Shown in pieces: positions 13,168 through 57,392 of a stretch of DNA of 64,000 nucleotides. The notes beneath the pieces are model-generated. The model worked only from the letters and a program-made list of their open reading frames with translations, did not search any database and was not told the origin of the DNA. Position 1 is the first letter of the stretch; the number at the start of each line of letters is the position of its first letter. The translations under genes and the position numbers were made by a program. The stretch covers positions 1-64,000 of the IMG/VR virus record IMGVR_UViG_3300032295_001098; one strand, 5' to 3'. The stretch is from a virus. Lineage: Duplodnaviria > Caudoviricetes.

Positions 13168-13388
13168 GGGGCAACTGTCTCCTCTGTAGGAACGGTGTCA
13201 ATAAATAAAGATCCTGAAAGCGGATCAAAGCCGAGCAATACGTCGGGGCATGCTCCATCTACTTCACATGCTGGTCTTTGGCACTGTGGCGCTTCCCAGT
13301 TTTCTGGGTCTTGGCACTCATAACGGTAATTACCGTCATAGCCACAACTTGCAAGCAAAACAACAGAAATAAAAAGTAGTTTCTTCAC
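13164..13388 (-). CDS. lipoprotein
   Basis: signal peptide with LASC lipobox; four further Cys. Confidence 0.6.
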   Translation of the reverse strand: MKKLLFISVVLLASCGYDGNYRYECQDPENWEAPQCQRPACEVDGACPDVLLGFDPLSGSLFIDTVPTEETVAP

Positions 13389-19155: not shown

Positions 19156-19292
19156 ATTTCAAGTATAGGGCTATTTGGGCGAGTTGGGTGGTCGGTCGGA
19201 TTTTTGGATGGGGCTATTGAGCCGTGGAGCATTGGGTGGGGCCTGTTGTCTACCCCCCGCCTCCGCTTGCCCCCTCACTTAACCATGGGGGG

Positions 19293-19392
19293 TTATCCAC
19301 AGCCCGCTCCATGCCCTGTATGGCTCTGCTGGGTTATCCACAGGTACCCCTGTGTACAGCCTGTGGATACTGTGGAACATCTCTGTGGAACA
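19293..19392. promoter_or_regulatory. DnaA-box cluster
   Basis: perfect TTATCCACA at 19293 and 19334; inverted near-matches at 19351, 19362, 19371, 19384. Confidence 0.7.
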
Positions 19393-19399
19393 TTGGGGG

Positions 19400-19413
19400 C
19401 GAACACCCGTTTG
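19400..19413. promoter_or_regulatory. LexA (SOS)-box-like site
   Basis: CGAAC-ACCC-GTTTG versus Gram-positive CGAAC-N4-GTTCG. Confidence 0.4.
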
Positions 19414-19478
19414 TGTGTCGTTCGTCACAGTGTGACCATCGTCACATGGATTGTTCCAATCGTGTGACATTCGTCACA
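19414..19478. promoter_or_regulatory. three CRP/GlxR-type sites
   Basis: TGTGT-cgttcg-TCACA 19414-19429, TGTGA-ccatcg-TCACA 19431-19446, TGTGA-cattcg-TCACA 19463-19478. Confidence 0.7.
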
Positions 19479-19959
19479 AACCCTTGACAACTCGCAATTG
19501 GCACGAGACGCACCACAATGCGTTCTCAGAGGAGGAGGGAGGGATGTAAGGGGTCAAGGCGGGCAGTGGTACAAAGTACCCTCAGAGAGGCTGTTGTGCG
19601 TCTACGAATGGGGCTATGAGCCTTGCTGGGTAAGGGTTTGCGGGGTATGGGTAGGTTACGAAGTACTCGCCACAGCGCCCCAATTGCTATCCACTGCACC
19701 ATCGCTCCATATCGGCACCTGCACGCACCACAGAGCCTCCTAGGCACCTCTCCTGCCATCCTGCGGTATTCATTGATTAATTGAATTCTCTGCCGATTCG
19801 CACCTGCATCTCCTCCATGCCTCCCTCTATCTCCTCCTCCATCCGATGGATGGCTGGTCGTTGGGGGCGCCCAATTCCAGCCCTGTCCCCGCCGTCCCGA
19901 GGCTCCAGCCCATACGGGGCATGGCTCAGAAGAATTCAGAAGAATTGTTTAATTGGGGG

Positions 19960-19989
19960 TTGACAGATGTACTCAATCCATGATTGAAT
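19960..19989 (+). promoter_or_regulatory. candidate early promoter
   Basis: TTGACA at 19960, 18 nt, TG-a-TTGAAT (imperfect -10). Confidence 0.35.
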
Positions 19990-20113
19990 TGGGGTGGAGG
20001 GGGATGCGTCCCCCGCCTCGGTTCCTTGACAAGTGGCAGGTACGGCACGCAGGCTTCGCCCTGCGCATTTTGCGTTCCTGCCCTCAGAATCAAACATGGT
20101 TCAAAATTCCTCA

Positions 20114-20828: not shown

Positions 20829-20851
20829 TACAACTGCCTAGAGGAGGCACC

Positions 20852-21109
20852 ATGGATACCACTACAGATGCAGTGCAGAACTACATCGCCACGAGACGGC
20901 GTGCACAGGAGGACATCATCGTGGGGCTGGTCAAACGGCTCAACGATGGATTCTCAGACATGGACGGCGCCGTGAGCAATCTAGGGCTGTTTCATCAGGC
21001 ACATCACATCTTCAAGTCACAGACCAACTGGATCGGTCAACTGGGCGAAGCATTCGCCAAGTACGAGTCACTGGCTTACCTTGAGGATGACTTCACGCCG
21101 AGTGAGTGA
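20852..21109 (+). CDS. hypothetical early protein
   Basis: CCTAGAGGAGG SD before ATG 20852. Confidence 0.65.
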   Translation: MDTTTDAVQNYIATRRRAQEDIIVGLVKRLNDGFSDMDGAVSNLGLFHQAHHIFKSQTNWIGQLGEAFAKYESLAYLEDDFTPSE

Positions 21110-21113
21110 GTGT

Positions 21114-21175
21114 TTCCCCCAGCGACTAGGTCGTGGCTCTTCAATGAGCACTGGGGACTGTGAGCAACCGCTCAC
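21114..21175 (+). ncRNA. T-loop element A, copy 2
   Basis: CCCCAG[CGAC-TAG-GTCG]TG[GCTC-TTCAAT-GAGC]A-CTGGGG-ACT + GTGAGC/GCTCAC hairpin. Confidence 0.7.
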
Positions 21176-21203
21176 TACAAATACCTTGAGGGAGGTATTC
21201 ACC

Positions 21204-21755
21204 ATGAAAACATCAGACATCAAGCAGATTCTTGCCAAGGATCCAAATGCAGTGTTTCTTGTCAGTCAACGGCACCGCACTTACTACGCCACAATCGTTG
21301 AAGTGGTGGAGCGTGAGGTGCCTGTGTATGACAACTACAGGCAGACGGGTACACGCACTTCGGTGTACTTCAATGTGCTCGGCTCGGTTTACAAGCACGG
21401 CATACAAGCCGACAAGTACCGAGAAGAGCGTGTGCCTTCGTACACCTTGGAGAAGAGTCACTGGATCAAGCCACGAGACATTCAGAGTCAGTTTGACTTC
21501 GGCACTGGTGAGACACTTCAACAGTGGATCGCCAATGAAGACCGTCAAATGAAGACTGACTGGCAAGCCAGCAAAGATGAAGAAACTGCGAAGTCGGATC
21601 AAGTGAAGGCAATCGTTCGCAAGATCAGTAGCCCGAAGGTCACCGACAGAGAATGGGACGAACTGAGTGATGAACTCAGCCGACTCAGTCTTCAGACACT
21701 GAAAACACTCAATGAGAAGATCAACCCGCAGATCGGTTTCGTACGATCAGCGTGA
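21204..21755 (+). CDS. hypothetical early protein
   Basis: GAGGGAGG SD before ATG 21204. Confidence 0.65.
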   Translation: MKTSDIKQILAKDPNAVFLVSQRHRTYYATIVEVVEREVPVYDNYRQTGTRTSVYFNVLGSVYKHGIQADKYREERVPSYTLEKSHWIKPRDIQSQFDFGTGETLQQWIANEDRQMKTDWQASKDEETAKSDQVKAIVRKISSPKVTDREWDELSDELSRLSLQTLKTLNEKINPQIGFVRSA

Positions 21756-21765
21756 GGTGAGCGAC

Positions 21766-21829
21766 TCCCCCGTGCACTTTAGGTGTGGCGTTCAATCGCA
21801 ACACGGGACTAGCGACATGCGAATGTCGT
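21766..21829 (+). ncRNA. T-loop element A, copy 3
   Basis: CCCGTG[CAC-TTTAG-GTG]TG[GCG-TTCAAT-CGC]AA-CACGGG-ACT + GCGACAT-GCGA-ATGTCGT. Confidence 0.7.
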
Positions 21830-21858
21830 GAATACAAATACCTAGAGGAGGTATAGCC

Positions 21859-22545
21859 ATGAATACAGAAGCAATCTACGACAAGGTGCAGGCAATCCTT
21901 GATCGTGCCAATCATCCGAACACGCCACAAGCGGAAGCCGAGACGGCTCTCGCCATGGCACAACGGCTCATGATGAAGCACGGTCTTGAAGAGTCCGCAT
22001 TCGCCAAGGCTCAAGATCGTGACGAGAACATCGTTACCGATCAGATCCCAATCAGTGGTCAATGGCAACTTCGCCGTCTCGGTCTTGCTGGTGCAATCGC
22101 TAGTGCCAACTCTGTTGCCAACTACCGCTCCAAATCGTGGGCGGATGGCAAGAAGTCGTTGGTGTTGGTGGTGTACGGCACTGCTGGTGACATCTTCGCT
22201 GTCAAGACACTGTTCGCATCGGCAGACTTGCTCGCTTCTCGTGTGATCCCAAAGGGTGATCGGTCATTCCGCAATGCGTGGTGGCTCGGATTCTCCTCGG
22301 GAGTGCGTGAGGTGTTGCGCAAGTCCAAGAACGAAGTGATCGCAGAGCAAGGTGTGGGCACTGGGTTAGTGCTCGCTGACAAGTTCAAGCGTGCAGACGC
22401 TGAGATGCGTTCAAAAGTCAAACTCAAGTCCAGTGGGTACTACAGGTACTCATCGGGTAACGGTTACAACGCTGGTCGTTCTGCTGGTCGTTCGTTCAAC
22501 ACTGGTGGCATCGGTAACGGTGTCGCTGGAGCGCTCGGACGATGA
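21859..22545 (+). CDS. DUF2786-domain protein
   Basis: KVQAILDRANHPNTPQAEAETALAMAQRLMMKHGL. Confidence 0.8.
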   Translation: MNTEAIYDKVQAILDRANHPNTPQAEAETALAMAQRLMMKHGLEESAFAKAQDRDENIVTDQIPISGQWQLRRLGLAGAIASANSVANYRSKSWADGKKSLVLVVYGTAGDIFAVKTLFASADLLASRVIPKGDRSFRNAWWLGFSSGVREVLRKSKNEVIAEQGVGTGLVLADKFKRADAEMRSKVKLKSSGYYRYSSGNGYNAGRSAGRSFNTGGIGNGVAGALGR

Positions 22546-23018
22546 GCATCCATGCATACATGGAGGTAGTGCGGGAGGGCGTTGCAAAGCGCTCTCCCAA
22601 AATGCCCGAACATCAAGCCACGGTGTATGCGATTGAGAATGTGGTGGAGCGTCACTTGCCATCGCAAGTGATCGCTACCAAGAACGCATTCGCTTGGCTG
22701 GATCGTGTGTGTGAGACCGAAGGCTGGGACACGCCGATGGTTGATCGCATCCGATCCACCAAGTGGGCAGGTGTCGCTAGTGCCGAAGGCAATGTCATCG
22801 GCATCAGTGGCTCCAGCACGACAGCACTGGTACTGGCTCACGAACTCGCTCACATCGTGTGTGGCGAGCGTGGTCACAATGAGTGTTGGCGTAATGCGTT
22901 CGTGAACATCGTCCGAGATCACATCTCGGTACAGCATGCGTCACTCCTGCATACCTTGTACGAGCGTTTCCAACTTCAATCAGGTCAGTGGAGACTGACC
23001 GACACATCACGAGTGTGA
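22542..23018 (+). CDS. SprT-like HEXXH metallopeptidase/metallohydrolase
   Basis: VLAHELAHIV...GHNECW; coupled to the DUF2786 gene. Confidence 0.7.
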   Translation: MSIHAYMEVVREGVAKRSPKMPEHQATVYAIENVVERHLPSQVIATKNAFAWLDRVCETEGWDTPMVDRIRSTKWAGVASAEGNVIGISGSSTTALVLAHELAHIVCGERGHNECWRNAFVNIVRDHISVQHASLLHTLYERFQLQSGQWRLTDTSRV

Positions 23019-23083
23019 ACTCGTGGTGCTGTCATGGCTCATCAGCGCAAGTTGGTGAGTCATGACAGCATCATCCGATGCTG
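23004..23083 (+). ncRNA. element B, copy 2
   Basis: CATCACGAGT-GTGA-ACTCGTGGTG; 24-bp H2 with GCAA loop; CAGCATC-ATCC-GATGCTG. Confidence 0.65.
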
Positions 23084-23109
23084 AACCAAATGCCTAGAGG
23101 AGGCAAACC

Positions 23110-23433
23110 ATGAGTTATCAACTGACAGACTGGGATCTAGAACAGATCACTGACACACTGGACATGTACGAGGCGGGTTCCGTAATGGAGTACTCGGGTC
23201 GTGCAATGTACGGCGCTCAATGCCTTGGCATTGTGACACCTGATGTGGCATCAGCATTCATGATCCTCGGATCGGCACTCGCTGATTTGGGCAATGACGG
23301 TAATGCATTGACGAGGAAACTTCTTCGTGAAGTGCGCACCGACAGCATGGGTCGTGACGAGACAGTTGTCTACTTCCCATCCATCACAATGCCAGCAGGC
23401 TATGTGGAGGAGGACGAAGACAGCGACAACTAG
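23110..23433 (+). CDS. hypothetical early protein
   Basis: YSGRAMYGAQCLGIV...DSMGRDETVVYFP; strong SD. Confidence 0.7.
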   Translation: MSYQLTDWDLEQITDTLDMYEAGSVMEYSGRAMYGAQCLGIVTPDVASAFMILGSALADLGNDGNALTRKLLREVRTDSMGRDETVVYFPSITMPAGYVEEDEDSDN

Positions 23434-23447
23434 TCGTAAGTGATAGT

Positions 23448-23530
23448 CGGGAGCATCACGGCGTAAGCCGTGGTGCCCTCACAGTGCATCGGCGTTGTGT
23501 CGGTGCATTGTGAGGGCATACAATTGCCCG
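23448..23530 (+). ncRNA. element B, copy 3
   Basis: GCATCACGGC-GTAA-GCCGTGGTGC; long H2; GGGCA-TACAAT-TGCCC. Confidence 0.7.
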
Positions 23531-23556
23531 TTCAATTAACGCCTAGAGGAGGCACC

Positions 23557-23814
23557 ATGGATGCAAGTATTCACAAAGTAACTGGGCTACGGATTGAGCG
23601 ATCCGATGACTCACGACTCAACACAATTGATCTCGTGATTCAGTACGAGGACTTAGCCTTCAGCCGTCCCCAGTGGGTTGACTACGACAAGGAGTCATTC
23701 GGTTACGCAAAATTGGAGACCACGATCACTCTCTTCATCAGTGATGAGGTGAACATGGACACAGTGTTGTGGCAAGCAATTGCAGATGTCACTTCACAAC
23801 TCTCCAAAGTGTGA
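23557..23814 (+). CDS. hypothetical early protein
   Basis: CCTAGAGGAGG SD before ATG 23557. Confidence 0.65.
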   Translation: MDASIHKVTGLRIERSDDSRLNTIDLVIQYEDLAFSRPQWVDYDKESFGYAKLETTITLFISDEVNMDTVLWQAIADVTSQLSKV

Positions 23815-23825
23815 GTAATGAGCAA

Positions 23826-23904
23826 TGGGCAGTCATGGCGTGAGCCATGGCGTGCTCGGAGTGCACTGATCCCCCATCGGTGCATTCCGAGGACGCAAGT
23901 CCAT
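23826..23904 (+). ncRNA. element B, copy 4
   Basis: GTCATGGC-GTGA-GCCATGGC; long H2; GGAC-GCAA-GTCC. Confidence 0.7.
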
Positions 23905-23943
23905 AGTTAGAAAAACAAAACAGAATCAGAGGAGGTTCTTACC

Positions 23944-24669
23944 ATGGGTGCAATAACACCAAAACAGCAAGCGTTCATTCGCACAATGCTTCTTGAGCGT
24001 GCTTCAACACTCGGTCTTGATGAGGCTGGCGTTGATCAGTACATCATTGATCAGAAGGTGAATGAGTTGTCAAATAAGTCAGCGTCCACCGTCATTGATG
24101 CAATCAAGAAGATTGAGATCAAGCGTGTGGGCACCGATCACTTGCCGAAGGCAGAGCGCAACATCGTCAACAAGTATGCGAACCCGTGCACATTGTGCGG
24201 GCATCCTGTGCCTGTCGGTGCTGGTCATGCGTTACTGATCAACAGCAAGTGGCAGACATACCACGCTCTCGGACAGTGCTCAACAGAGCCTGCCGTACAG
24301 CCTGAGCGTGTGAGCAATGAATTGTTCGGGACATTGCCTGATGGCTTCTATGCAATGAGGTCAACGGGCACGAACGATCTCGTGTTCTATGCGGTGAAGA
24401 CAAATAAGGGTTTTCATAACCCTCAGTTCAAGGGTCACCGCTCCATCTACTTAGTTGTGGGTGGTCACGATGACGAGCGACTCACTGGTGAGCGTGGCGT
24501 GAACGCTGTGAAGCGTCTCGTAACACTCACTGATGAACAGCGTGTGCAGGCACGAGCACTGTACGGTCAAGAGATCGGACGGTGTGGTGTGTGCGGACGG
24601 CACTTAACTGACGAAGTCACACGCAAGCGTGGCATCGGCAATGACTGCGCAAGCAGGTTGGGCATCTAG
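23944..24669 (+). CDS. DUF6011-type zinc-finger protein
   Basis: C-terminal CGVCGRHLTDEVTRKRGIGNDCA; second CxxC..H..C motif. Confidence 0.7.
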   Translation: MGAITPKQQAFIRTMLLERASTLGLDEAGVDQYIIDQKVNELSNKSASTVIDAIKKIEIKRVGTDHLPKAERNIVNKYANPCTLCGHPVPVGAGHALLINSKWQTYHALGQCSTEPAVQPERVSNELFGTLPDGFYAMRSTGTNDLVFYAVKTNKGFHNPQFKGHRSIYLVVGGHDDERLTGERGVNAVKRLVTLTDEQRVQARALYGQEIGRCGVCGRHLTDEVTRKRGIGNDCASRLGI

Positions 24670-24674
24670 CCCGA

Positions 24675-24748
24675 GGGCGTCATGGCGTGAGCCATGGCGT
24701 GCTCACAGCACATGGGTACGCTCATGTGTTGTGAGGACGCAAGTCCAT
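24675..24748 (+). ncRNA. element B, copy 5
   Basis: H1 and H3 identical to copy 4; H2 differs in sequence but still pairs. Confidence 0.7.
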
Positions 24749-24773
24749 AACACTTACCTGAGGAGGTAAATAT

Positions 24774-26312
24774 ATGACCATGAATACACAACTAGGAGAA
24801 CTAAGCGCATTGCTTAGTCGTGTTGAGCGTGTAGCGCCAGCCATCACGGCTGACCCTGCGCTCCATGCGTTAAGTAGTGCTCACGATGGCGAAGTCGCTG
24901 TAGACCTCGCCCAGCCTCTCTTCCCATTCCAGCGTGCTGGTGTGGCGTATGCTCTCAAGCAACGCCGTGCCATCATCGGAGATGAGATGGGGCTGGGTAA
25001 GACTCCACAAGGCATCGCAGTAGCAGTGCACGCACACAAGGAGGGACACAAAGTCCTCGTTGTAGTGCCACCATCGCTCCGCATCAACTGGCAACGCTCC
25101 TTCGCACTGTTCGCACCGTGGCTGACAACAGCCATTGTGTCGGGCAACAAAGTGACGGCTCTTCCCAAAGCAGATGTGCTCATTATTGGTGACAGCATCA
25201 TTGACACTTGGTCAGTGAGGCTTGTCAATGCCAAGTTCGGCGCACTGATCGTGGACGAGGCGCATCGTGCGAAGAATGCAAAGTCAGGACGCACCAAGGG
25301 CATCGCACATATCGCTAAGTCAATCCCGACTGAGGGTTATGTGACGCTCTTGAGCGGAACGATCATCGTGAACCGTCCGAACGAATTGGTCTCGCCACTG
25401 TCAATCATTGGCAGACTTGACCGAGTGTTCGGTGGTAAGTCAGCGTTCCTGTTTCGTTACTGTGACCCGATCCACAATGGTTGGGGTTATGTGTACAACG
25501 GAGCAACCAACACCACTGAGTTGAACGACAAATTGCGTGGCACCTGCTATGTGAGGCGTAACAAGTCAGATGTGTTGAAGGAACTACCTGCCAAGCGCCG
25601 TGCTCAGGTTGCTACCGAGATCAGCAACACCGATCTCGTGGCATATCGCTCTGCTGAAGAGAACTTCCGTGACTTCGTTATCGCCAACGGCGGTGTTGAA
25701 GCATGGCAGAGAGCCTCTAAGGCTGAAGTGATCACACGCCTGAATGCATTGCGCAGGTTGCTCGGTATCGCAAAGATCCCGTATGTGGTGGAGCATGTAG
25801 AAGAACTTGTCGCACAAGGCGAGAAGGTCATCGTGTTCGCACATCACAAAGAAGTCATCGCACAACTAAGCAGTGCTCTGCATGAGCATGGCGTAGTCAA
25901 GGTGGCTGGCGGACTCAGCGATACACAGAAGCAGGAAGCAGTTGACGCATTCCAAACTGGTAGCGCCAAGGTGTTCATCGGACAATTTCAATCCGCTGGT
26001 GTTGGTCTCACATTGACCGCATCATCGCATGTCGTGTTCGCTGAATTGCCATGGGAGCCAGCCTCCGCAGTGCAAGCCGAAGACCGTGCGCATCGCATCG
26101 GTCAAGACAACGCTGTGGTCGCATGGTGGCTACTGGCTGTAGACAACACAAGCGAGATCCCAACAGTGGACGATCGCATGTGGGCGCTACTGAATGCCAA
26201 ACACGAGACAGTTTCGGCTGTCTTGACGGGGCACGGTGAGGACATGGGCGCCGAGGGTGCGACAAGCATCACTCAATCGCTCATTGAAGGCATCATCGGC
26301 AACGGAGGTTGA
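24774..26312 (+). CDS. SNF2/HARP-like DEAH helicase
   Basis: GDEMGLGKT, DEAH, SGT, QAEDRAHRIGQ. Confidence 0.9.
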   Translation: MTMNTQLGELSALLSRVERVAPAITADPALHALSSAHDGEVAVDLAQPLFPFQRAGVAYALKQRRAIIGDEMGLGKTPQGIAVAVHAHKEGHKVLVVVPPSLRINWQRSFALFAPWLTTAIVSGNKVTALPKADVLIIGDSIIDTWSVRLVNAKFGALIVDEAHRAKNAKSGRTKGIAHIAKSIPTEGYVTLLSGTIIVNRPNELVSPLSIIGRLDRVFGGKSAFLFRYCDPIHNGWGYVYNGATNTTELNDKLRGTCYVRRNKSDVLKELPAKRRAQVATEISNTDLVAYRSAEENFRDFVIANGGVEAWQRASKAEVITRLNALRRLLGIAKIPYVVEHVEELVAQGEKVIVFAHHKEVIAQLSSALHEHGVVKVAGGLSDTQKQEAVDAFQTGSAKVFIGQFQSAGVGLTLTASSHVVFAELPWEPASAVQAEDRAHRIGQDNAVVAWWLLAVDNTSEIPTVDDRMWALLNAKHETVSAVLTGHGEDMGAEGATSITQSLIEGIIGNGG

Positions 26313-26391
26313 TCGTGGGCGCTCGGCGCCTCATGGTCGGCGCCCGTAGCGACAGACGATGTGTTCTTGTCCTCACGGGAACCATCACAGT

Positions 26392-26472
26392 GCATCACGG
26401 GCGCAAGCCCGTGGTGTTCTGACAGTACATCGGCACACCGCTGGTGTACCGTCAGAACATCACCCGATGTTC
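26392..26472 (+). ncRNA. element B, copy 6
   Basis: GCATCACGGGC-GCAA-GCCCGTGGTGT; long H2; GAACATC-ACCC-GATGTTC. Confidence 0.7.
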
Positions 26473-26495
26473 AAACAACGCCTAGAGGAGGCACC

Positions 26496-26711
26496 ATGTA
26501 CAACTTAAATGTAAATCTCAGCGGAGGCATTGATCGCCGTGGATCCGAACTGGACATCCTGTACCAGTTAGTTGAAGAGGGCATGGAAGCCATCTACAAC
26601 CGACTTGGTGACGATGGCATTTATCCATGGGGAACTGTGGAGCAATATGTCGCTGTACAGCAGAAGATTCAAAATGCTCTCGGAGAGATCTGTTCTAAGA
26701 ACGGTTTCTAG
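26496..26711 (+). CDS. hypothetical early protein
   Basis: CCTAGAGGAGG SD before ATG 26496. Confidence 0.6.
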   Translation: MYNLNVNLSGGIDRRGSELDILYQLVEEGMEAIYNRLGDDGIYPWGTVEQYVAVQQKIQNALGEICSKNGF

Positions 26712-26715
26712 AGAG

Positions 26716-26776
26716 TTCCCCTAGCGCTTTAGGCGTGGCGTTCAATCGCAACTAGGGACTGTGAACACCCGTTCAC
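26716..26776 (+). ncRNA. T-loop element A, copy 4
   Basis: CCCTAG[CGC-TTTAG-GCG]TG[GCG-TTCAAT-CGC]AA-CTAGGG-ACT + GTGAAC/GTTCAC hairpin. Confidence 0.7.
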
Positions 26777-26805
26777 TATAAGTAAACAAAGCCTGAGGAG
26801 GCACA

Positions 26806-27042
26806 ATGAAAGTAAGCCATGCAATTAAATTATTGAGTGAGATCAATCCTGACGAAGAGATATGTATCTCTTGGTGGGAAGCAAATCTGTTTACTGACGA
26901 ACATGATGAAACATTGTCGGCAGACTCAGAGGGATGGCTAAGGGCAGTTGCCGATTTTACTTCTGCGGATGGTTATGCAACCATCAACAGTCAAATGTGG
27001 GATTTTCTTTGGTATTCAATTACAGAACAAGGAGAGTTCTAA
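26806..27042 (+). CDS. hypothetical early protein
   Basis: CCTGAGGAGG SD. Confidence 0.6.
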   Translation: MKVSHAIKLLSEINPDEEICISWWEANLFTDEHDETLSADSEGWLRAVADFTSADGYATINSQMWDFLWYSITEQGEF

Positions 27043-27344
27043 TGACAATCGGAACACCAATAGGTGCGTGGGCAATCATTCAATGGAAGGACACGCAAGA
27101 TGAAAGCGAGGTGTATTTCTCGTTTGGCACATGGAATGAGAACGAGTGGGGCGGTGAGTTTGACTCACTGGGCAACAAAGACGATGAGGTTTTCTTTTAC
27201 TGCGAAGGCGGAGAAGAAGAACTCAAGTCGCTCGTAGGCAACAACGGCGAAGACTTCAATGTCTTGTCGTATGACATTGACTACAGCGTTCCACTCGTGC
27301 TCGCTGACATGGACGAGCCAGTATTCAAGGAGGAAGCACAATGA
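27042..27344 (+). CDS. acidic hypothetical protein
   Basis: AAGGAG SD, TAATG coupling. Confidence 0.6.
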   Translation: MTIGTPIGAWAIIQWKDTQDESEVYFSFGTWNENEWGGEFDSLGNKDDEVFFYCEGGEEELKSLVGNNGEDFNVLSYDIDYSVPLVLADMDEPVFKEEAQ

Positions 27345-27604
27345 TCGGTACAAAGAGTTGGCTACTGACAGGTTGTTATGTAGACGGCACACACGGCGTC
27401 TACAGCGCCATGGAAGCGTGCAGGATCGCACGAGAACTCGGATGGGATGGGCAACAGCCCACAGACATTGAGGACTCGTGGTACCAAGAAGAGGTAGCCA
27501 CGGAATGGCTGAACAAGGTGATCGCTGACGATGGTCACTCGTTCGGTTGGCATGACGCCGAGTACTTCTACATGCCACAAGCATGGTGGGAGGATGTCGC
27601 TTGA
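27341..27604 (+). CDS. acidic hypothetical protein
   Basis: AGGAGG SD, ATGA overlap. Confidence 0.6.
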   Translation: MIGTKSWLLTGCYVDGTHGVYSAMEACRIARELGWDGQQPTDIEDSWYQEEVATEWLNKVIADDGHSFGWHDAEYFYMPQAWWEDVA

Positions 27605-27605
27605 T

Positions 27606-27687
27606 CGGGAGCATCACGGGCTACGGCTCGTGGTGTCCTCACAGCCCATAAATCATATTTGTGGGTTGTGAGGGCACTCAGTGCCCG
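27606..27687 (+). ncRNA. element B, copy 7
   Basis: GCATCACGGGC-TACG-GCTCGTGGTGT; long H2; GGGCAC-TCA-GTGCCC. Confidence 0.7.
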
Positions 27688-27723
27688 ATAAATTAATTAA
27701 TCCCTATGACCTGAGGAGGTCTT

Positions 27724-28083
27724 ATGTTAGAGCCAGTAATCACGATGACCGTTGAGCAATGGGAAGAGCAATACGAACCCTTTGTCAATCACCTAGATGC
27801 AGATGCATCATGGGCAACCGATGACGCCAACGGCATCATGTTTGAAACATACGGTGCCGAAGTTGATTATGTGTATGCCCGACCACTCAACCACACATGG
27901 ACATATGTGGATGGCGAAGAGGGCACATACATTCTTGCTGGACGCCATCTCGTAAATCGCATCGGTTACTTCGTAACTGCGGTGCCATGGAAGGATGACT
28001 TCAACACCAAGTATGAAATTCAAGTAAGTGCCAATGATGATTATTACCAAACAGTGTTAGACCTTGAAGGAGGCAACAAATGA
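27724..28083 (+). CDS. hypothetical phage protein
   Basis: MFETYGAE...WTYVDG...GRHLVNRIGYFVT; strong SD. Confidence 0.7.
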   Translation: MLEPVITMTVEQWEEQYEPFVNHLDADASWATDDANGIMFETYGAEVDYVYARPLNHTWTYVDGEEGTYILAGRHLVNRIGYFVTAVPWKDDFNTKYEIQVSANDDYYQTVLDLEGGNK

Positions 28084-28289
28084 AAACAATCAATGTGAAA
28101 GCAGGAGACGAGGTAGAAATTCTTGTGCAGATCTATCAGAACGAGACCTTTGAATACACAGGAATCGTTTCAAATATCAGCGACACCGAGTTGACATTGT
28201 GGACTGAAGACAGCCCACACTTTGACACTGGTGTTGAGCGTGAGATTGACATCCCGCTCAACAAGATCCTTGAAGTGGACATCTTTTAG
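28080..28289 (+). CDS. small SH3/Sm-like hypothetical protein
   Basis: beta-rich 69 aa; SD. Confidence 0.5.
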   Translation: MKTINVKAGDEVEILVQIYQNETFEYTGIVSNISDTELTLWTEDSPHFDTGVEREIDIPLNKILEVDIF

Positions 28290-28341
28290 TAAGAAGCAAC
28301 CCTGTAACACCTATCAACAACAATGATCTGAGGAGGTCATC

Positions 28342-30019: not shown

Positions 30020-31045
30020 ATGTCAAGAGAAACCAGCCAGTGGCTCAACCAGAATGTTCTGGTGGGCTTTACATCCAAGCGTGGAAACGCATGGCACTAC
30101 AAGGCAACTGAACAAGGAACCGAGCCAAACCATTATGAGCAGGCGATCCCTGTTGAAGATGTGCGTAGGCGTTTGTTCAACTGGCAGGCTGTTGAAGCCC
30201 CAGTGTTCGTTCAAGTTCCTGACAACGCTGGAGTCAATCGTTACATTGAGCAGAGTGACCGCAAGGCAATTGTTCGTAACGACACTTATGAGACTCTCGG
30301 TCTCTTCAAGGACTCGTATCAGATACACCAGTACAACGAGTGGTTGATCGGAACCATCAGCAACATCATTGATGACAGCAACTTGCAGATCGGATCTGCG
30401 GGCTTGCTCCGCAACGGTGGAGTTGCTTGGGTCAGCATTGAGATGCCTGAGACAGTTCAGACCAAGGCGGGATTTGAGTTCCGTCCACACCTACTCGGAA
30501 CCACGAGCCACAACGGCACACTTGCCACCACCTTCAAGCGCACAGTCACCGCCGTGGTGTGTGACAACACACTTGCTGGAGCACTTGGTGAGAGCGGATC
30601 AGAGTTCAAGACCCGTCACAGCAAGTTCAGCAACGGACGCATCCAAGACATTCGTGATGCTCTCGGAATCATCCACACCATGGCAGACGAAGTCAGCCTT
30701 GAGATTGAGCGCTTGTCATCATTGACAGTCACCCAGTCTGAGTGGGACGCCATCGTTGACCGCTTGGTACCAGTTGGTGTCGGTGAAGAGGCTCGCCCTC
30801 AAGCCGTGAGCCGTGCTCAGAACAAGCAGGAGTTGATCCGTCACCTCTACAAGAATGACCCACGCTGTGCTCCATGGGTTGGTACACAACTCGGAGTGTT
30901 ACAGGCATTCAACACATGGACTCACCACTTCAGTGGCAAGGACGAGTCCCGTGTAGAGCGCAACGCAATGAATGCACTCAACGGCAAGACCGATGAGTTT
31001 GACCGTCAGGTGCTTCGCATCATGAATGATGTGGTACTCGTATGA
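30020..31045 (+). CDS. DUF932-family phage protein
   Basis: SAGLLRNGG..W, TTSHNG, VVCDNTL, KTRHS motifs. Confidence 0.8.
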   Translation: MSRETSQWLNQNVLVGFTSKRGNAWHYKATEQGTEPNHYEQAIPVEDVRRRLFNWQAVEAPVFVQVPDNAGVNRYIEQSDRKAIVRNDTYETLGLFKDSYQIHQYNEWLIGTISNIIDDSNLQIGSAGLLRNGGVAWVSIEMPETVQTKAGFEFRPHLLGTTSHNGTLATTFKRTVTAVVCDNTLAGALGESGSEFKTRHSKFSNGRIQDIRDALGIIHTMADEVSLEIERLSSLTVTQSEWDAIVDRLVPVGVGEEARPQAVSRAQNKQELIRHLYKNDPRCAPWVGTQLGVLQAFNTWTHHFSGKDESRVERNAMNALNGKTDEFDRQVLRIMNDVVLV

Positions 31046-31434
31046 CCGAAGCGCTGGTGGGGGAGCAATCCCCCACCTATGCTCGGGACACCGAATACAC
31101 AGCCTTACCATTCCCCGAAGTGATGGCGGAATGGAGATCGCAAGCCAAGTGCAAAGATGAAGACGGATCACTGTGGTTTGCCAGCAAGCCGAAAGGCATT
31201 AACAACTCATCCATCAAAGGAAGAATTGTTAACAGCCGTAGGAAGCGGGCACAGCGTATTTGTAAAGTGTGTCCTGTTCAGTATGAATGCCTGCGCTACG
31301 CCGTCTTGAATGACTTCAGGGATGGCATATGGGCTGGTTATGAAATGGATGACCTCACACATACAGACCGTCAAGTACTTCGTCAGCGTATTAAACGAGC
31401 AGAACGAAAGTTAAATAAGACTGTCAACAAGTGA
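31042..31434 (+). CDS. whiB: WhiB-family transcription factor
   Basis: W...AKC...CKVCPVQYECL...GIWAG. Confidence 0.85.
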   Translation: MTEALVGEQSPTYARDTEYTALPFPEVMAEWRSQAKCKDEDGSLWFASKPKGINNSSIKGRIVNSRRKRAQRICKVCPVQYECLRYAVLNDFRDGIWAGYEMDDLTHTDRQVLRQRIKRAERKLNKTVNK

Positions 31435-33443: not shown

Positions 33444-33860
33444 TTAAGGCTGAATCAACCTAAACTTAAGCATCTCTAAATCAATCTCTTTGTCACCCAT
33501 CTTGGGAATCTCTTCAATATTTATTTTATTAATCTCTGCTGACTCTGCTTCCGCACACTCATTACAGCGACAACCTTGTCTGTAACGCACCCATGTGCCA
33601 TGTTGACGCATGATGCTTGCTTTAGGATGCTCTACAGTGAGCGCTGTTCGTTCTTGTGGTGTGAGACCGCCCCACATTCCCCACTTCTCTTCCACTCCAT
33701 CGTCTAAACATTCTTTCCACACAGGACATTGACGACATACTGCTTTAGAAATTATGTAGTAATTATCTGGTACGTCAGTGTCTAATGGCGGATACCAAAG
33801 GTCAATGGCTCGGTCTTTGCAAAGGGCATCAACACGCCAGTCCTCTGCGAACTGTGGCAA
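33444..33860 (-). CDS. whiB: WhiB-family transcription factor with extra C-terminal Zn motif
   Basis: CRQCPVWKEC, GMWGGLTPQER; HGT..RY..GCRCNEC. Confidence 0.85.
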   Translation of the reverse strand: MPQFAEDWRVDALCKDRAIDLWYPPLDTDVPDNYYIISKAVCRQCPVWKECLDDGVEEKWGMWGGLTPQERTALTVEHPKASIMRQHGTWVRYRQGCRCNECAEAESAEINKINIEEIPKMGDKEIDLEMLKFRLIQP

Positions 33861-55067: not shown

Positions 55068-55475
55068 CTACTCTTCGGTAAGTCTTGGGTCAATTGAGAT
55101 TGAGGTCGGCTGATCGTCTTCTTTGACATAGTTTTCCTTTGCGTATTTATCTAAGTTTGCTAAGAATGCTCTCCACGGCGCAACCTCCACTGGTAACGGT
55201 CTCCGTGTTATCTCTTTTACAAACGCCATGATCATGGCACGTATCTGGTCAGTTGTAAAGCCCTTGTCGGTGAGTTTCTTGAAACCCTTCATCAAGGCGG
55301 GACCATTCACTGGGGCGGTGATTCTGTCCAGCGTCTCGGTCGGGAGACTGTCACGGAAGAAGTACACCAAGTTACCTCGGGAGTCCTGTCGGGTCTGTTT
55401 TGGGGCGGGTTCTTTTTTGTCGGGGTCTTCACCTAAGCCGACGCCCCAGTCGTCAGAAAGTTTCTTCATCTTCAA
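55068..55475 (-). CDS. hypothetical protein (possible initiator partner)
   Basis: overlaps the initiator 3' end. Confidence 0.55.
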   Translation of the reverse strand: MKMKKLSDDWGVGLGEDPDKKEPAPKQTRQDSRGNLVYFFRDSLPTETLDRITAPVNGPALMKGFKKLTDKGFTTDQIRAMIMAFVKEITRRPLPVEVAPWRAFLANLDKYAKENYVKEDDQPTSISIDPRLTEE

Positions 55476-55938
55476 GCCTCTGATCTACTTGTGTTGAAAT
55501 TTTCCCTTTCTTGTTAAATTTACTCTTGTTATATACTCTTGATTGGGTGTCACCCGTGACACTACTAGTGGTGTCTCCCGTGACACTACCTAGTGTCTCC
55601 ATGGACACTACTAGGGGTGACTCGTGTGACACTACTGGGTTGTTAAAATTGACGTAATAACGGTTCGTCAAGTTCTTGTTGTTACGGGTCACACGGTGCT
55701 GTTTGACGATCAAGCCAATCTCTTCTAGGCGCTTCATGGAGCGGATTACGGTTCGGCGGTCACAGCCCAACTGGTCAGCAATGTGCTGGTAGGAGGTTGT
55801 CAGTTCCTGCGTATCTGGGTGAAGGTACTGAAGCATGTGGTTCAGTACTGCATGCGAGATGTAGTCCGTAGAGATGTATGGAAGCACCCATCTCGGGACA
55901 GGTAAAAAAGGTCCGCTCAACTTATTGTTTCGTGCCAT
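55453..55938 (-). CDS. HTH replication-initiator-like protein
   Basis: SYQHIADQLGCDRRTVIRSMKRLEEIGLI..NRY; GAGGAG SD before ATG 55938; internal iterons. Confidence 0.75.
   Translation of the reverse strand: MARNNKLSGPFLPVPRWVLPYISTDYISHAVLNHMLQYLHPDTQELTTSYQHIADQLGCDRRTVIRSMKRLEEIGLIVKQHRVTRNNKNLTNRYYVNFNNPVVSHESPLVVSMETLGSVTGDTTSSVTGDTQSRVYNKSKFNKKGKISTQVDQRLEDEETF
55547..55635. repeat. four palindromic iterons GTGWC-N6-GACAC-TAC (putative origin)
   Basis: starts at 55547, 55571, 55593, 55617; AT-rich tract at ~55495-55545. Confidence 0.75.
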
Positions 55939-55990
55939 ACTGCTCCTCAGGTTGTTATCTAGGGTCGCCATGCTACACTCTCGCTAGTCG

Positions 55991-56021
55991 CTTTAGCACT
56001 TCCCTGATCGGGTGCTAAAGT
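55991..56021 (+). promoter_or_regulatory. inverted repeat CTTTAGCAC/GTGCTAAAG overlapping an extended -10
   Basis: TG-c-TAAAGT at 56013-56021. Confidence 0.5.
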
Positions 56022-56027
56022 GGGCAT

Positions 56028-56122
56028 AGTGTTGGGGGGAGGGCGACCTCCTCAGGAACTACAGAGCAAGGGTCTTTCCCTCCTTTCTGCCCTTGCCCTT
56101 GTTAACGGCCCTCCCTTCAACC
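56028..56122 (+). ncRNA. candidate structured sRNA with anti-Shine-Dalgarno segments
   Basis: 14-bp closing stem with G-U pairs; GCAAGGG/CCCTTGC hairpin with loop containing CCTCCTTTCT. Confidence 0.5.
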
Positions 56123-56136
56123 GCTAAACTATGTTC

Positions 56137-56301
56137 ATGGCATCTAAAAAAGAAGTATGGGATAAACCCAATCCAAAGAAGAAGTCAACCAAGTTGACAC
56201 CTGACCAGAAGTCAGAAGCAAAGGCTCGTGCTAAAGCCGCTGGTCGTCCATATCCAAACCTTGTTGACAACATGGCTGTCTCCAAGAAAGGTAAGAAATA
56301 A
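56137..56301 (+). CDS. small basic protein (54 aa), not in ORF track
   Basis: TAAACT-N6-ATG; MASKKEVWDKPNPKKK...AGRPYPNLVDNM. Confidence 0.7.
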   Translation: MASKKEVWDKPNPKKKSTKLTPDQKSEAKARAKAAGRPYPNLVDNMAVSKKGKK

Positions 56302-56570
56302 TGGCTGAGAGTAAGAAAGACCCACGACTTGCACGTGCAGGTGTGTCTGGTTTCAACAAACCAAAAGCAACACCTGACCACCCAACTAAGTCGCATGTTG
56401 TTGTTGCTAAAGAAGGCGACAACGTTAAGACCATTCGCTTTGGGCAACAGGGCGTCAAAGGTTCACCTGATGGTTCCGCACGCAATGCTTCGTTCAAGGC
56501 ACGTCATGCCAAGAACATCTCTAAAGGAAAGATGTCTGCCGCCTATTGGGCTGACAAGGTGAAGTGGTAA
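56301..56570 (+). CDS. small basic phage protein
   Basis: KSHVVVAKEG..IRFGQQG..FKARH..SAAYWADKVKW. Confidence 0.7.
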   Translation: MAESKKDPRLARAGVSGFNKPKATPDHPTKSHVVVAKEGDNVKTIRFGQQGVKGSPDGSARNASFKARHAKNISKGKMSAAYWADKVKW

Positions 56571-57392
56571 CTAAATAGTTGCACCGAAGCCAAACAACTG
56601 TTTGACTTCTTCCACGTTTGCAGGACGGCTCATGATCACTCCGCTAGGGAATGTTGCCGTAAGCATGCAGGTGTCATAAGAATTAGTAACTGCTCGGTCG
56701 TTTTGAGCACTACTTACAACATGGAATGTACCTAGATCAATAGGTGGCAAGATGTCTACTTCTTCTACTTCGGTATCTTCAATAATTGGGTCTGGCATCG
56801 TAACGTCATTGAGTATTGCATCAACGATTTGTTCTTTAGTCATGGTCGTTCCTACTTGGATACCTTGAGCCTTTGCGTTCTTGCGAAGGACACCAATAGA
56901 CATTGACAACATTTCAGCACGGCTAAATGGTTCAATCTCAACTTCTTCAGTAGGTACTGGTGTTGCTTTCTCTTCGTGTGTAATGTCCACAACAATTGGG
57001 ACCAATCCATTAGTCAAGTCCAGGATTGTTACACCAGCGTCAGCCGCATCAAAACAGATCTCTTCCATTTCAGGTACTAATGTGTCATCCCAAAGAAGCA
57101 AAAGAGTTCCTTTGGTCTTTGACAAATAGTGAATGATGTCCCTTGCTGGGTTTGCATCTAGTCGTTCAATTGAAGCCTTCTCAATAAACTCCGCAGGAGC
57201 CTTACCATTGTGGGTAAGCATGAAATCAACTTCCATGTCAATCAACCAGTTGATTACTCTTGACTCTGACTCTGATGGCTTGGCACCACAGGTAACAATA
57301 AAGTTGTTATCTACGCCCAGTTCATTAAGAGCATCTTCAATGATGTTCTTGCTGGTTCTACCTGTTCCTAAAATCCCATATTTCTTTAGCAT
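56571..57392 (-). CDS. hypothetical protein (Rossmann-like N-terminus, Rho-N-like motif)
   Basis: AGGAG SD; LRKNAKAQGI...TKEQIVDAIL. Confidence 0.55.
   Translation of the reverse strand: MLKKYGILGTGRTSKNIIEDALNELGVDNNFIVTCGAKPSESESRVINWLIDMEVDFMLTHNGKAPAEFIEKASIERLDANPARDIIHYLSKTKGTLLLLWDDTLVPEMEEICFDAADAGVTILDLTNGLVPIVVDITHEEKATPVPTEEVEIEPFSRAEMLSMSIGVLRKNAKAQGIQVGTTMTKEQIVDAILNDVTMPDPIIEDTEVEEVDILPPIDLGTFHVVSSAQNDRAVTNSYDTCMLTATFPSGVIMSRPANVEEVKQLFGFGATI

Follow-up and report, generated by a model that had tools for sequence, protein, structure and literature searches.

A conserved structured RNA element with candidate anti-Shine-Dalgarno loops beside the replication initiator gene of an uncultivated freshwater actinophage

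The actinobacterial small RNA (sRNA) 6C pairs through C-rich loops with G-rich ribosome-binding sites and represses mRNAs without a chaperone, and its targets include the replication gene dnaB (PMC6486639). Here we describe a candidate RNA of comparable build, encoded at 56028-56125 on the + strand of the window, by which we mean the whole 64,000-nucleotide (nt) stretch analysed, the first 64 kb of the 94,977-bp IMG/VR virus record IMGVR_UViG_3300032295_001098 (estimated 99% complete), from a phage described here as an uncultivated freshwater actinophage. Like 6C, as reported from Mycobacterium, Streptomyces and Corynebacterium, it would be a stable stem-loop RNA of ~100 nt with exposed C-rich loops and no use of Hfq (PMC6486639), and its predicted fold exposes C-rich strands that are complementary to G-rich ribosome-binding sites. 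It differs from 6C in being phage-encoded, in having no Rfam match and no cellular copy among the 80 genome matches listed, in carrying one motif in an internal loop rather than a hairpin, and in that its motifs are exact CCUCC copies of the anti-Shine-Dalgarno (anti-SD) sequence, where 6C has runs of C.

The immunity RNAs c4 of phage P1 and CI of phage P4 are small and structured and act in trans through short loops on repeated sites, the targets of c4 covering a ribosome-binding site; the present element differs from both in matching no Rfam model, in that its predicted targets are translation starts dispersed over many genes, and in that no lysogeny module is seen nearby. In phage T4 the protein nuclease RegB inactivates early mRNAs by attacking GGAG Shine-Dalgarno (SD) sequences, an outcome similar to the one considered below, although RegB cuts whereas the candidate RNA would mask the SD by pairing. 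The lambda OOP transcript is an antisense RNA that lies beside the lambda replication genes (PMC12197685), and the element resembles OOP, CopA, RNAI and the countertranscribed RNA of pGA1 in being a small structured RNA beside and opposite to an initiator gene, with complementarity to its start region. Those countertranscripts overlap their target gene, whereas the predicted RNA gene stops short of its complementary 9-mer by ~35-75 nt, according to which 5' end is taken, so that pairing with the initiator mRNA would be in trans and short. Regulatory RNAs of actinobacterial phages appear almost unknown; a 2025 review of phage sRNAs leaves Actinobacteria unmentioned in its main text (PMC12197685), and the literature that we searched yielded no phage anti-SD mimic. 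Rfam contains no description of the RNA family, whose mechanism is likely of a known type.

The + strand of the element is predicted to fold at -44.1 kcal/mol (z -3.17; 0 of 200 shuffles) into a structure in which a closing helix of 17 bp encloses an inner hairpin of 11 bp, the - strand giving -42.1 kcal/mol (z -2.15). The parts of this fold are:

56028-56044, + strand: helix 1, 5' strand, AGUGUUGGGGGGAGGGC, pairing with 56108-56125
56045-56059, + strand: internal-loop motif (i), GACCUCCUCAGGAAC, containing the invariant ACCUCCUCAGG
56061-56072 with 56090-56102, + strand: helix 3, 11 pairs, 4 of them changed on both sides
56073-56089, + strand: loop (iii), 17 nt, holding CCCUCCUUUCU
56108-56125, + strand: helix 1, 3' strand, GCCCUCCCUUCAACCGCU, the probable 3' end region

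Six of the 17 pairs of helix 1 have changed on both sides, and 100% of its alignment cells are paired; in the window its 14-nt arms GTTGGGGGGAGGGC (56031-56044) and GCCCTCCCTTCAAC (56108-56121) are 86% Watson-Crick, the remaining two positions being G-T. The inner inverted repeat is formed by AGAGCAAGGG (56063-56072) and CCCTTGCCCT (56090-56099).

Covariation in relatives is the decisive evidence that the element exceeds chance. Relatives were found through the initiator protein and then, in greater number, by motif scans, and a covariance model of the element was built from nine sequences. A motif scan gave 24 loci; the model search then covered 29 sources (the window, L002-L015 and 14 new loci) and found the element in 20 of them, that is, in the window and 19 loci, of which L007 is partial. 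Two further motif scans produced 73 new loci with one member, and a metagenome motif scan returned three members among the 80 matches listed, two of the three being contigs already counted; the family totals 22 contigs and 13 distinct sequences. No member was present among the 80 motif-carrying matches listed from bacterial and archaeal genomes, and in the phage's own genome the covariance-model search finds a single copy. On a plain MAFFT alignment, which is independent of the model, RNAalifold yields 31 pairs, and compensatory changes are present in 7. The model-fitted alignment of 15 sequences, which is biased towards the model, has standard pairs in 403 of 403 cells over the 13 distinct sequences and changes on both sides in 10 of 31 pairs (32 cells), a level reached by 0 of 500 shuffles; with the pairing partners slid, at most 2 pairs showed double changes. 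Read on the + strand, the 28 wobble cells are without exception G-U and never A-C, which identifies the + strand as the folded one and rules out the - strand. A small coding open reading frame (ORF) was also rejected: no reading frame is conserved, 5 of the 13 distinct sequences lack the GTG start at 56029, and the central 30 nt are put out of frame by indels of 1 and 2 nt. Rfam 15 (4227 models, including 6C, C4, countertranscribed RNAs, riboswitches, ribozymes and Y RNA) gave no match at gathering score in the whole window and none in 55900-56250 even at E up to 10. These results confirm a conserved structured RNA element on the + strand that is undescribed in Rfam. The partial member, L007:2828-2894, is without 27 nt present in L006, namely the 3' arm of helix 1 and the -10 box that follows it, through either natural variation or an assembly error.

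Both sequence motifs are invariant whereas the stems covary. In the modelled structure the stems present two exposed loops, ACCUCCUCAGG (internal) and UUUNCCUCCUUUC (the 17-nt hairpin loop), both with CCUCC. ACCUCCUCAGG is identical in 13 of 13 distinct sequences; motif (i) has a mean unpaired probability of 0.54 and an opening cost of 2.1 kcal/mol, and a 3-bp CCU/AGG mini-helix is possible inside it. Loop (iii), with an unpaired probability of 0.99, contains CCTCCTTTCT at 56079-56088 as well as CCUCCUUUC, which is again invariant in 13 of 13 distinct sequences. The 3' tail of 16S rRNA is given as GAUCACCUCCUUUCU for many bacteria (PMC6288834), and loop (iii) is identical to 9-11 nt of this general tail. 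A longer identity, ACCUCCUUUCU, is found in four sequences (L006, L008, L010 and L084), and the GAUCA part of the tail is absent from loop (iii) of the 13 distinct sequences. A sequence-only reading of this locus had reported an extended -10 (TGCTAAAGT, 56013-56021), 14-nt arms whose G-U pairs favour the + strand, CCTCCTTTCT in the hairpin loop, an exact complement of GACCTCCTCAGG within the phage with two near matches, and a 9-nt match in the initiator ribosome-binding region, all of which are present; it had also named covariation and loop conservation in relatives as checks, and the counts given above agree with it on both.

The + strand block at 20-31 kb has a higher G+C and much stronger ribosome-binding sites than the rest of the genome, the net energy of pairing with the 16S tail having a median of -6.1 in the block (n=18) and -3.2 elsewhere (n=132; p 4e-4). 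Its SD sites are small hairpins of the form NN-CCU-(A)GAGG-AGG-N'N' (20837-28338, + strand, in the window; also in the genomes G001, G002 and G004). At least one extra flanking pair is present in 36 of 36 such sites across the four genomes, with letters that covary (GA..UC, G..C, UA..UA, GU..AC), and in 34 of 36 a start codon stands 3-14 nt behind the hairpin; three occurrences that are mere complements of the RNA have no flanking pair. A role as translational operator or enhancer is possible for the SD hairpin. ACCUCCUCAGG is exactly antisense to these hairpins over their loop and 3' arm, and GACCTCCTCAGG (56045-56056) has its exact reverse complement at 27710-27721 and one-mismatch complements at 24757-24768 and 28327-28338. 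Where 0.18 would be expected, 4 matches are thus present, a count reached in 0 of 100 shuffles under a null that ignores the GGAGG enrichment of ribosome-binding sites. When 63,302 windows from both strands are ranked as partners of motif (i), the top four places, its own complement aside, go to block start regions (27710, 28327, 24757 and 26792). The leading predicted targets are:

27710-27721, + strand: SD hairpin GACCUGAGGAGGUC before the 119-amino-acid (aa) gene at 27724; 12-nt exact complement
24757-24768, + strand: SD hairpin UACCUGAGGAGGUA before the helicase gene at 24774 (phrog_62); 11/12 complement
28327-28338, + strand: SD hairpin UGAUCUGAGGAGGUCA before the ATG at ~28346; 11/12 complement

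Net energies, which include the opening costs of both RNAs, are predicted at -12.3 to -12.8 kcal/mol for the 24774 gene (-5.2 for the 16S tail), at -11.5 kcal/mol for the 27724 gene (duplex -26.1) and at -10.1 kcal/mol for the ~28346 start, a site not in the called gene set; the 16S tail itself gives about -5 kcal/mol on the start regions of 24774 and 27724. The 27710 site is identical in G001 (66533) and near-identical in G002 (27114). Weaker values follow for the gene at 26806 (-5.9 kcal/mol) and for the CCUAGAGG class (about -4.7 kcal/mol), and motif (i) clearly beats the 16S tail at only 2 of 150 called translation starts, plus the uncalled 28327 site. The models thus predict an advantage of motif (i) over the ribosome that is real and limited to two or three genes. 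For loop (iii) the block median is -3.1 versus -6.1 for the 16S tail; being equal to that tail, it would have no advantage over the ribosome. With up to 1 mismatch allowed, the window contains neither another copy of CCTCCTTTCT nor a complement to it (1 match versus 3.39 expected). The strongest partner of loop (iii) is a start-stop site at 19527-19549 (duplex -27.2 kcal/mol), which was rejected because G001 and G002 lack it.

The element is flanked on both sides by promoter-like boxes, which together with the upstream hairpin H0 are arranged as follows:

55971-55979, + strand: P0, candidate extended -10, TGCTACACT; predicted start near 55986
55989-56022, + strand: H0, upstream hairpin with arms CTTTAGCAC and GTGCTAAAG, extended by G-U and C-G pairs; 12-nt loop
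56013-56021, + strand: P1, extended -10, TGCTAAAGT, with TTAGCA 17 nt upstream; predicted start near 56028
56125-56139, + strand: P2, -10 box TAAACT, then 6 nt, then ATG 56137 of the phrog_34011 gene

The P0 box in its CATGnTACACTnTC form (TGnTACACT type) is invariant in 15 of 15 aligned relatives. It is overlapped by a leftward -10-like TAGCAT (55975-55970), which would serve the initiator gene; at 55969-55979 the back-to-back -10-like TACACT (+) and TAGCAT (-) overlap within one invariant 14-nt block. RNA polymerase would probably be restricted to one of the two boxes at any moment, and a switch between RNA and initiator is possible. The H0 arms form a perfect 9-nt inverted repeat, and although its sequence varies, folding predictions give the hairpin on the + strand of all 15 relatives, with greater stability there than on the - strand in 14 of 15; one G-C to A-U double change is present (L006/L010). 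At P1, which had earlier been taken for the promoter of the RNA, the TAnnGT hexamer is retained 5-7 nt before the helix 1 base in all clades, but the box sits within the 3' arm of H0, so that the RNA may instead start at P0, ~42 nt upstream; its length would be ~98 nt from P1 or ~140 nt from P0.

Downstream of the fold, a -10-like hexamer, exactly 6 nt and an ATG recur in each relative with coding sequence directly after the element, the exception being L007, where the box is missing. In the L098/L009/L011 clade, TGCTACACT or TGCTACAAT stands at the place of P2 and a different, SD-led gene follows ~50 nt on. Three different genes follow the element across clades, and the gene after it has no SD available for sequestration; both facts speak against a riboswitch or cis leader of the downstream gene. 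Across the genome, TANNNT stands 5-7 nt upstream of the first start codon in 15 of 150 cases, at exactly 6 nt in 12, versus 39 of 1520 internal start codons (p 4e-5); leaderless-looking examples with TANNNT, 6 nt and ATG or GTG are at 13388, 13792, 16906, 18355, 18832, 19155 (-) and 56137 (+). The phrog_34011 gene looks leaderless, with its own promoter, which would make the fold a separate unit and not its leader. No listed RNA run contains the region. Four runs from wastewater carry an RNA-Seq label but are probably DNA; in X1 and X2 the depth is even across the element and the sequence on either side.

On the other side of the element, the translation start of the neighbouring initiator is placed as follows:

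55936-55951, - strand: initiator translation start, SD region CCUGAGGAG (55951-55943), probable true ATG 55938 (161 aa)

The first ATG of the long ORF 55453-55971 (at 55971) falls inside the promoter-like block; relatives align from residue 12 of this ORF, and a good SD precedes ATG 55938. Within the start region TCCTCAGGTTG is invariant in 15 of 15 relatives, and the 9-mer CTCCTCAGG occurs in motif (i) at 56048 and again in the initiator ribosome-binding region at 55943-55951. A cis-antisense countertranscript of the rep gene was rejected, since the initiator SD lies outside the fold and outside the P0 start at ~55986, and no conserved leftward promoter right of the element is seen in the alignment of relatives.

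In the sister phage G004, whose initiator is 49% identical and whose gene order is shared, there is no copy of the RNA or its motif, and an unfiltered covariance-model search of L012-L015 gave only an unrelated hairpin (10.3 bits, E 0.47). The same slot holds, in order, TGATACACT (corresponding in place to P0), a small hairpin, an initiator-start copy, a 12-bp hairpin and a -10 box before a leaderless gene:

L013:2826-2935, - strand: G004 candidate sRNA, with 5' mini-hairpin, initiator-start copy and 12-bp hairpin

The copy matches 27 of 30 nt of the phage's own initiator start region and would be antisense if transcribed away from the initiator; the predicted duplex of the G004 candidate RNA with the initiator reaches -33.4 kcal/mol (0 of 500 shuffles). 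This copy and the predicted duplex suggest that the slot encodes an RNA aimed at the initiator start region, of which only 9 nt of complementarity remain in the window's family. The commonest 10-mer in G004 is CCTGAGGAGG.

Based on these observations, we propose, with a rough probability of 0.45, that the element encodes an sRNA acting in trans to block a small number of phage mRNAs with strong SDs, perhaps including that of the neighbouring replication initiator. The RNA gene would lie on the + strand between the initiator gene and the leaderless small gene and give a product of ~100 nt from P1, or ~140 nt with H0 from P0. That it would be a separate unit is suggested by the promoter-like boxes at conserved distance, the -10 box right after the fold, the varying downstream gene and the single copy. 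The RNA would pair in trans with SD regions and so keep 30S subunits off; at a few genes of the 20-31 kb block, which is probably expressed early, motif (i) would pair over 10-12 bp with SD hairpins of the 'CCUGAGGAGGU' kind, its best partners being the genes at 24774, 27724 and ~28346, and it would also form 9 bp with the start region of the neighbouring initiator. The hairpin loop, as a copy of the 16S 3' tail, would add a generic affinity for strong SDs. The locus combines strong comparative support, clear candidate targets and a simple pairing rule in uncultivated freshwater actinophages, and exposes a covarying SD-hairpin signature on a whole phage gene block. If the pairing is real, it would amount to an RNA-based shut-off of a gene class via the ribosome-binding site, comparable to that by the T4 protein RegB, and would extend the chaperone-free C-rich-loop mechanism of 6C to viruses.

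A number of results weigh against this proposal. The candidate RNA is known here from sequence alone, and only at a minority of the block genes does motif (i) outbind the 16S tail. G004 carries 14 CCTGAGGAGG sites, 13 with a start codon close behind, and thus keeps SD hairpins while lacking the RNA, which means that the hairpins exist for another reason; in L472, the sole further G004 relative found, three changes in the initiator start are unmatched in the copy. A G-to-A change beside the motif in one clade (GCGACC to GCAACC) is uncompensated in the targets, and no conserved phage partner of loop (iii) was found; the earlier idea of an antisense RNA to phage ribosome-binding sites holds for motif (i), including its match at the initiator, but lacks support for the 16S-like loop. 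Control of the initiator, also raised earlier, keeps its 9-bp complementarity, but at a net energy of only -4.3 kcal/mol, and when the whole RNA is paired, the initiator start does not outperform shuffled targets (117/500). A sigma-70 consensus promoter scan, which demands a good -35, reported none of P0, P1 and P2 (P1 has 8 of 12 matches); actinobacterial promoters often lack a good -35. No terminator-like site is present at 56028-56135 on either strand, which speaks against an intrinsic (Rho-independent) terminator, and because no U-tract follows helix 1 (3' flank CAACCGCUAAACUAUG) the 3' end of the RNA is one that we infer. The 27-nt deletion of the 3' arm in L007 also weighs against the proposal.

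Among the alternatives, the one that we take most seriously, though we think it unlikely, is that the fold acts in cis, either as part of a longer P0 or P1 transcript into the downstream genes or as a U-less terminator or insulator before P2, with the motifs serving the folding, for instance by pairing alternatively with the G-rich 5' strand, and not trans targets. This would fit an element that lies directly upstream of + strand genes and is followed by no canonical terminator, and in which three CCUCC segments compete for a single GGGAGG strand. However, the gene that follows differs between clades, and a leadered transcript of the next gene would be poorly translated, since this gene lacks an SD and carries a -10 box of its own at 6 nt from its ATG. 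An alternative GGGGAGG-GNRA-CCUCCUC hairpin, which the sequence-only reading had offered as a caveat in its GGGGAGG-GCGA-CCUCCUC form, can indeed be drawn, its GCGA loop becoming GCAA in one clade, but it shows no covariation, and G18 to A in L006 breaks its closing pair while being compensated in helix 1. Insulation alone also leaves the invariant 9-11-nt loops unexplained. Clearly less probable than action in cis is that the RNA is a mimic of the ribosomal anti-SD tail, either masking strong SDs wholesale so that leaderless or weak-SD messages win, or serving as a decoy for a host nuclease or factor that acts on the 16S 3' end in abortive infection. We give a similarly low rating to the related possibility of a protein-binding RNA whose copy of the 16S tail, perhaps together with the GGAGG/CCUCC helix, mimics the anti-SD region, binds a host endoribonuclease or a ribosome-associated protein and so protects ribosomes in infection. 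MazF-type toxins of actinobacteria cut the anti-SD, phage RNA mimics of antitoxin RNAs reportedly exist, and the identity of 9-11 nt of loop (iii) with the 16S tail in all 13 distinct sequences, nearly always unpaired and with no conserved phage partner, would suit such a decoy; on the other side, no partner protein came to light, the GAUCA of the tail is absent, motif (i) has clear RNA partners, and the idea draws on general background.

A global anti-SD sponge, occupying host and early phage SDs generally while leaderless phage mRNAs are still translated, is what the sequence-only reading had favoured, and we consider it very unlikely. The two CCUCC motifs, the stronger SDs of the block and the excess of TANNNT-preceded starts speak for it, but loop (iii) pairs no better than the 16S tail and would have to outnumber ribosomes, and the strong binding of motif (i) at only 2 of 150 called starts and one uncalled site lends no support to a silencing of SD-led mRNAs at large. 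The escape of leaderless messages fares better in part: a leaderless-looking gene class exists (15 of 150 starts), but most genes outside the block use weak SDs and not leaderless starts. The least probable reading is a DNA-level element, which could be an operator with a palindrome, a set of direct repeats bound by a protein, or a signal for single-strand initiation close to the origin. The CTCCTCAGG direct repeats at 55943 and 56048 are 105 bp apart, four iterons within the initiator gene are ~400 bp away, H0 is a perfect palindrome spanning the P1 -35 and -10, and CCTNAGG is palindromic. Against these stand the 10 compensatory pairs with deviations that are all of the G-U type on one strand, the promoter-like boxes at conserved distance, and an iteron sequence that differs.

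The element sits in a divergent region with the initiator gene on one side and two small + strand genes on the other. PHROG and Pfam scans show baseplate and tail genes, a leftward replication module and two WhiB-like regulators in the genome:

Replication module, leftward: phrog_270-type helix-turn-helix initiator (ORF 55453-55971), DnaC-like loader, DnaB-like helicase, primase, polymerase, UvsX-like recombinase
31042-31434, + strand, and 33444-33860, - strand: WhiB-like genes
56137-56301, + strand: phrog_34011, 54-aa basic protein
56301-56570, + strand: phrog_7595, 89-aa protein

The two WhiB genes make an actinobacterial host probable, and whiB is reportedly mentioned in papers on freshwater actinophages. 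Among GenBank phages, a megablast search with 40000-64000 gave zero matches and so no close relative, and a blastn search with 55400-56700 hit nothing but the phrog_7595 gene (query 911-1172), present in 24 records. This small phage gene is widely shared, its DNA being 65-81% identical to genes of SIO1-like roseophages, Lentibacter and Celeribacter phages and a Synechococcus phage.

Four palindromic ~23-bp iterons (GTGTCACCCGTGACACTACTAGTG-like) lie at 55509-55635 within the initiator gene, beside an AT-rich stretch, and appear in the initiator protein as repeated peptides (VTGDT...), a layout like that of lambda O and its origin. The replication origin is probably elsewhere than the element. 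A G+C-rich non-coding region of 850 bp at 19160-20000 separates divergent modules. It holds perfect DnaA boxes TTATCCACA at 19293 and 19334 and a 1-mismatch box at 19362 (-), DnaA-box matches across the window not being enriched (15 versus 17 expected). GTCACA/TGTGAC repeats follow at 19420-19480, a start-stop mini-ORF after a very strong SD (AGGAGGAGGGAGGGATGTAA) at 19530-19549, and a promoter-like TTGACA...TTGAAT site near 19961.

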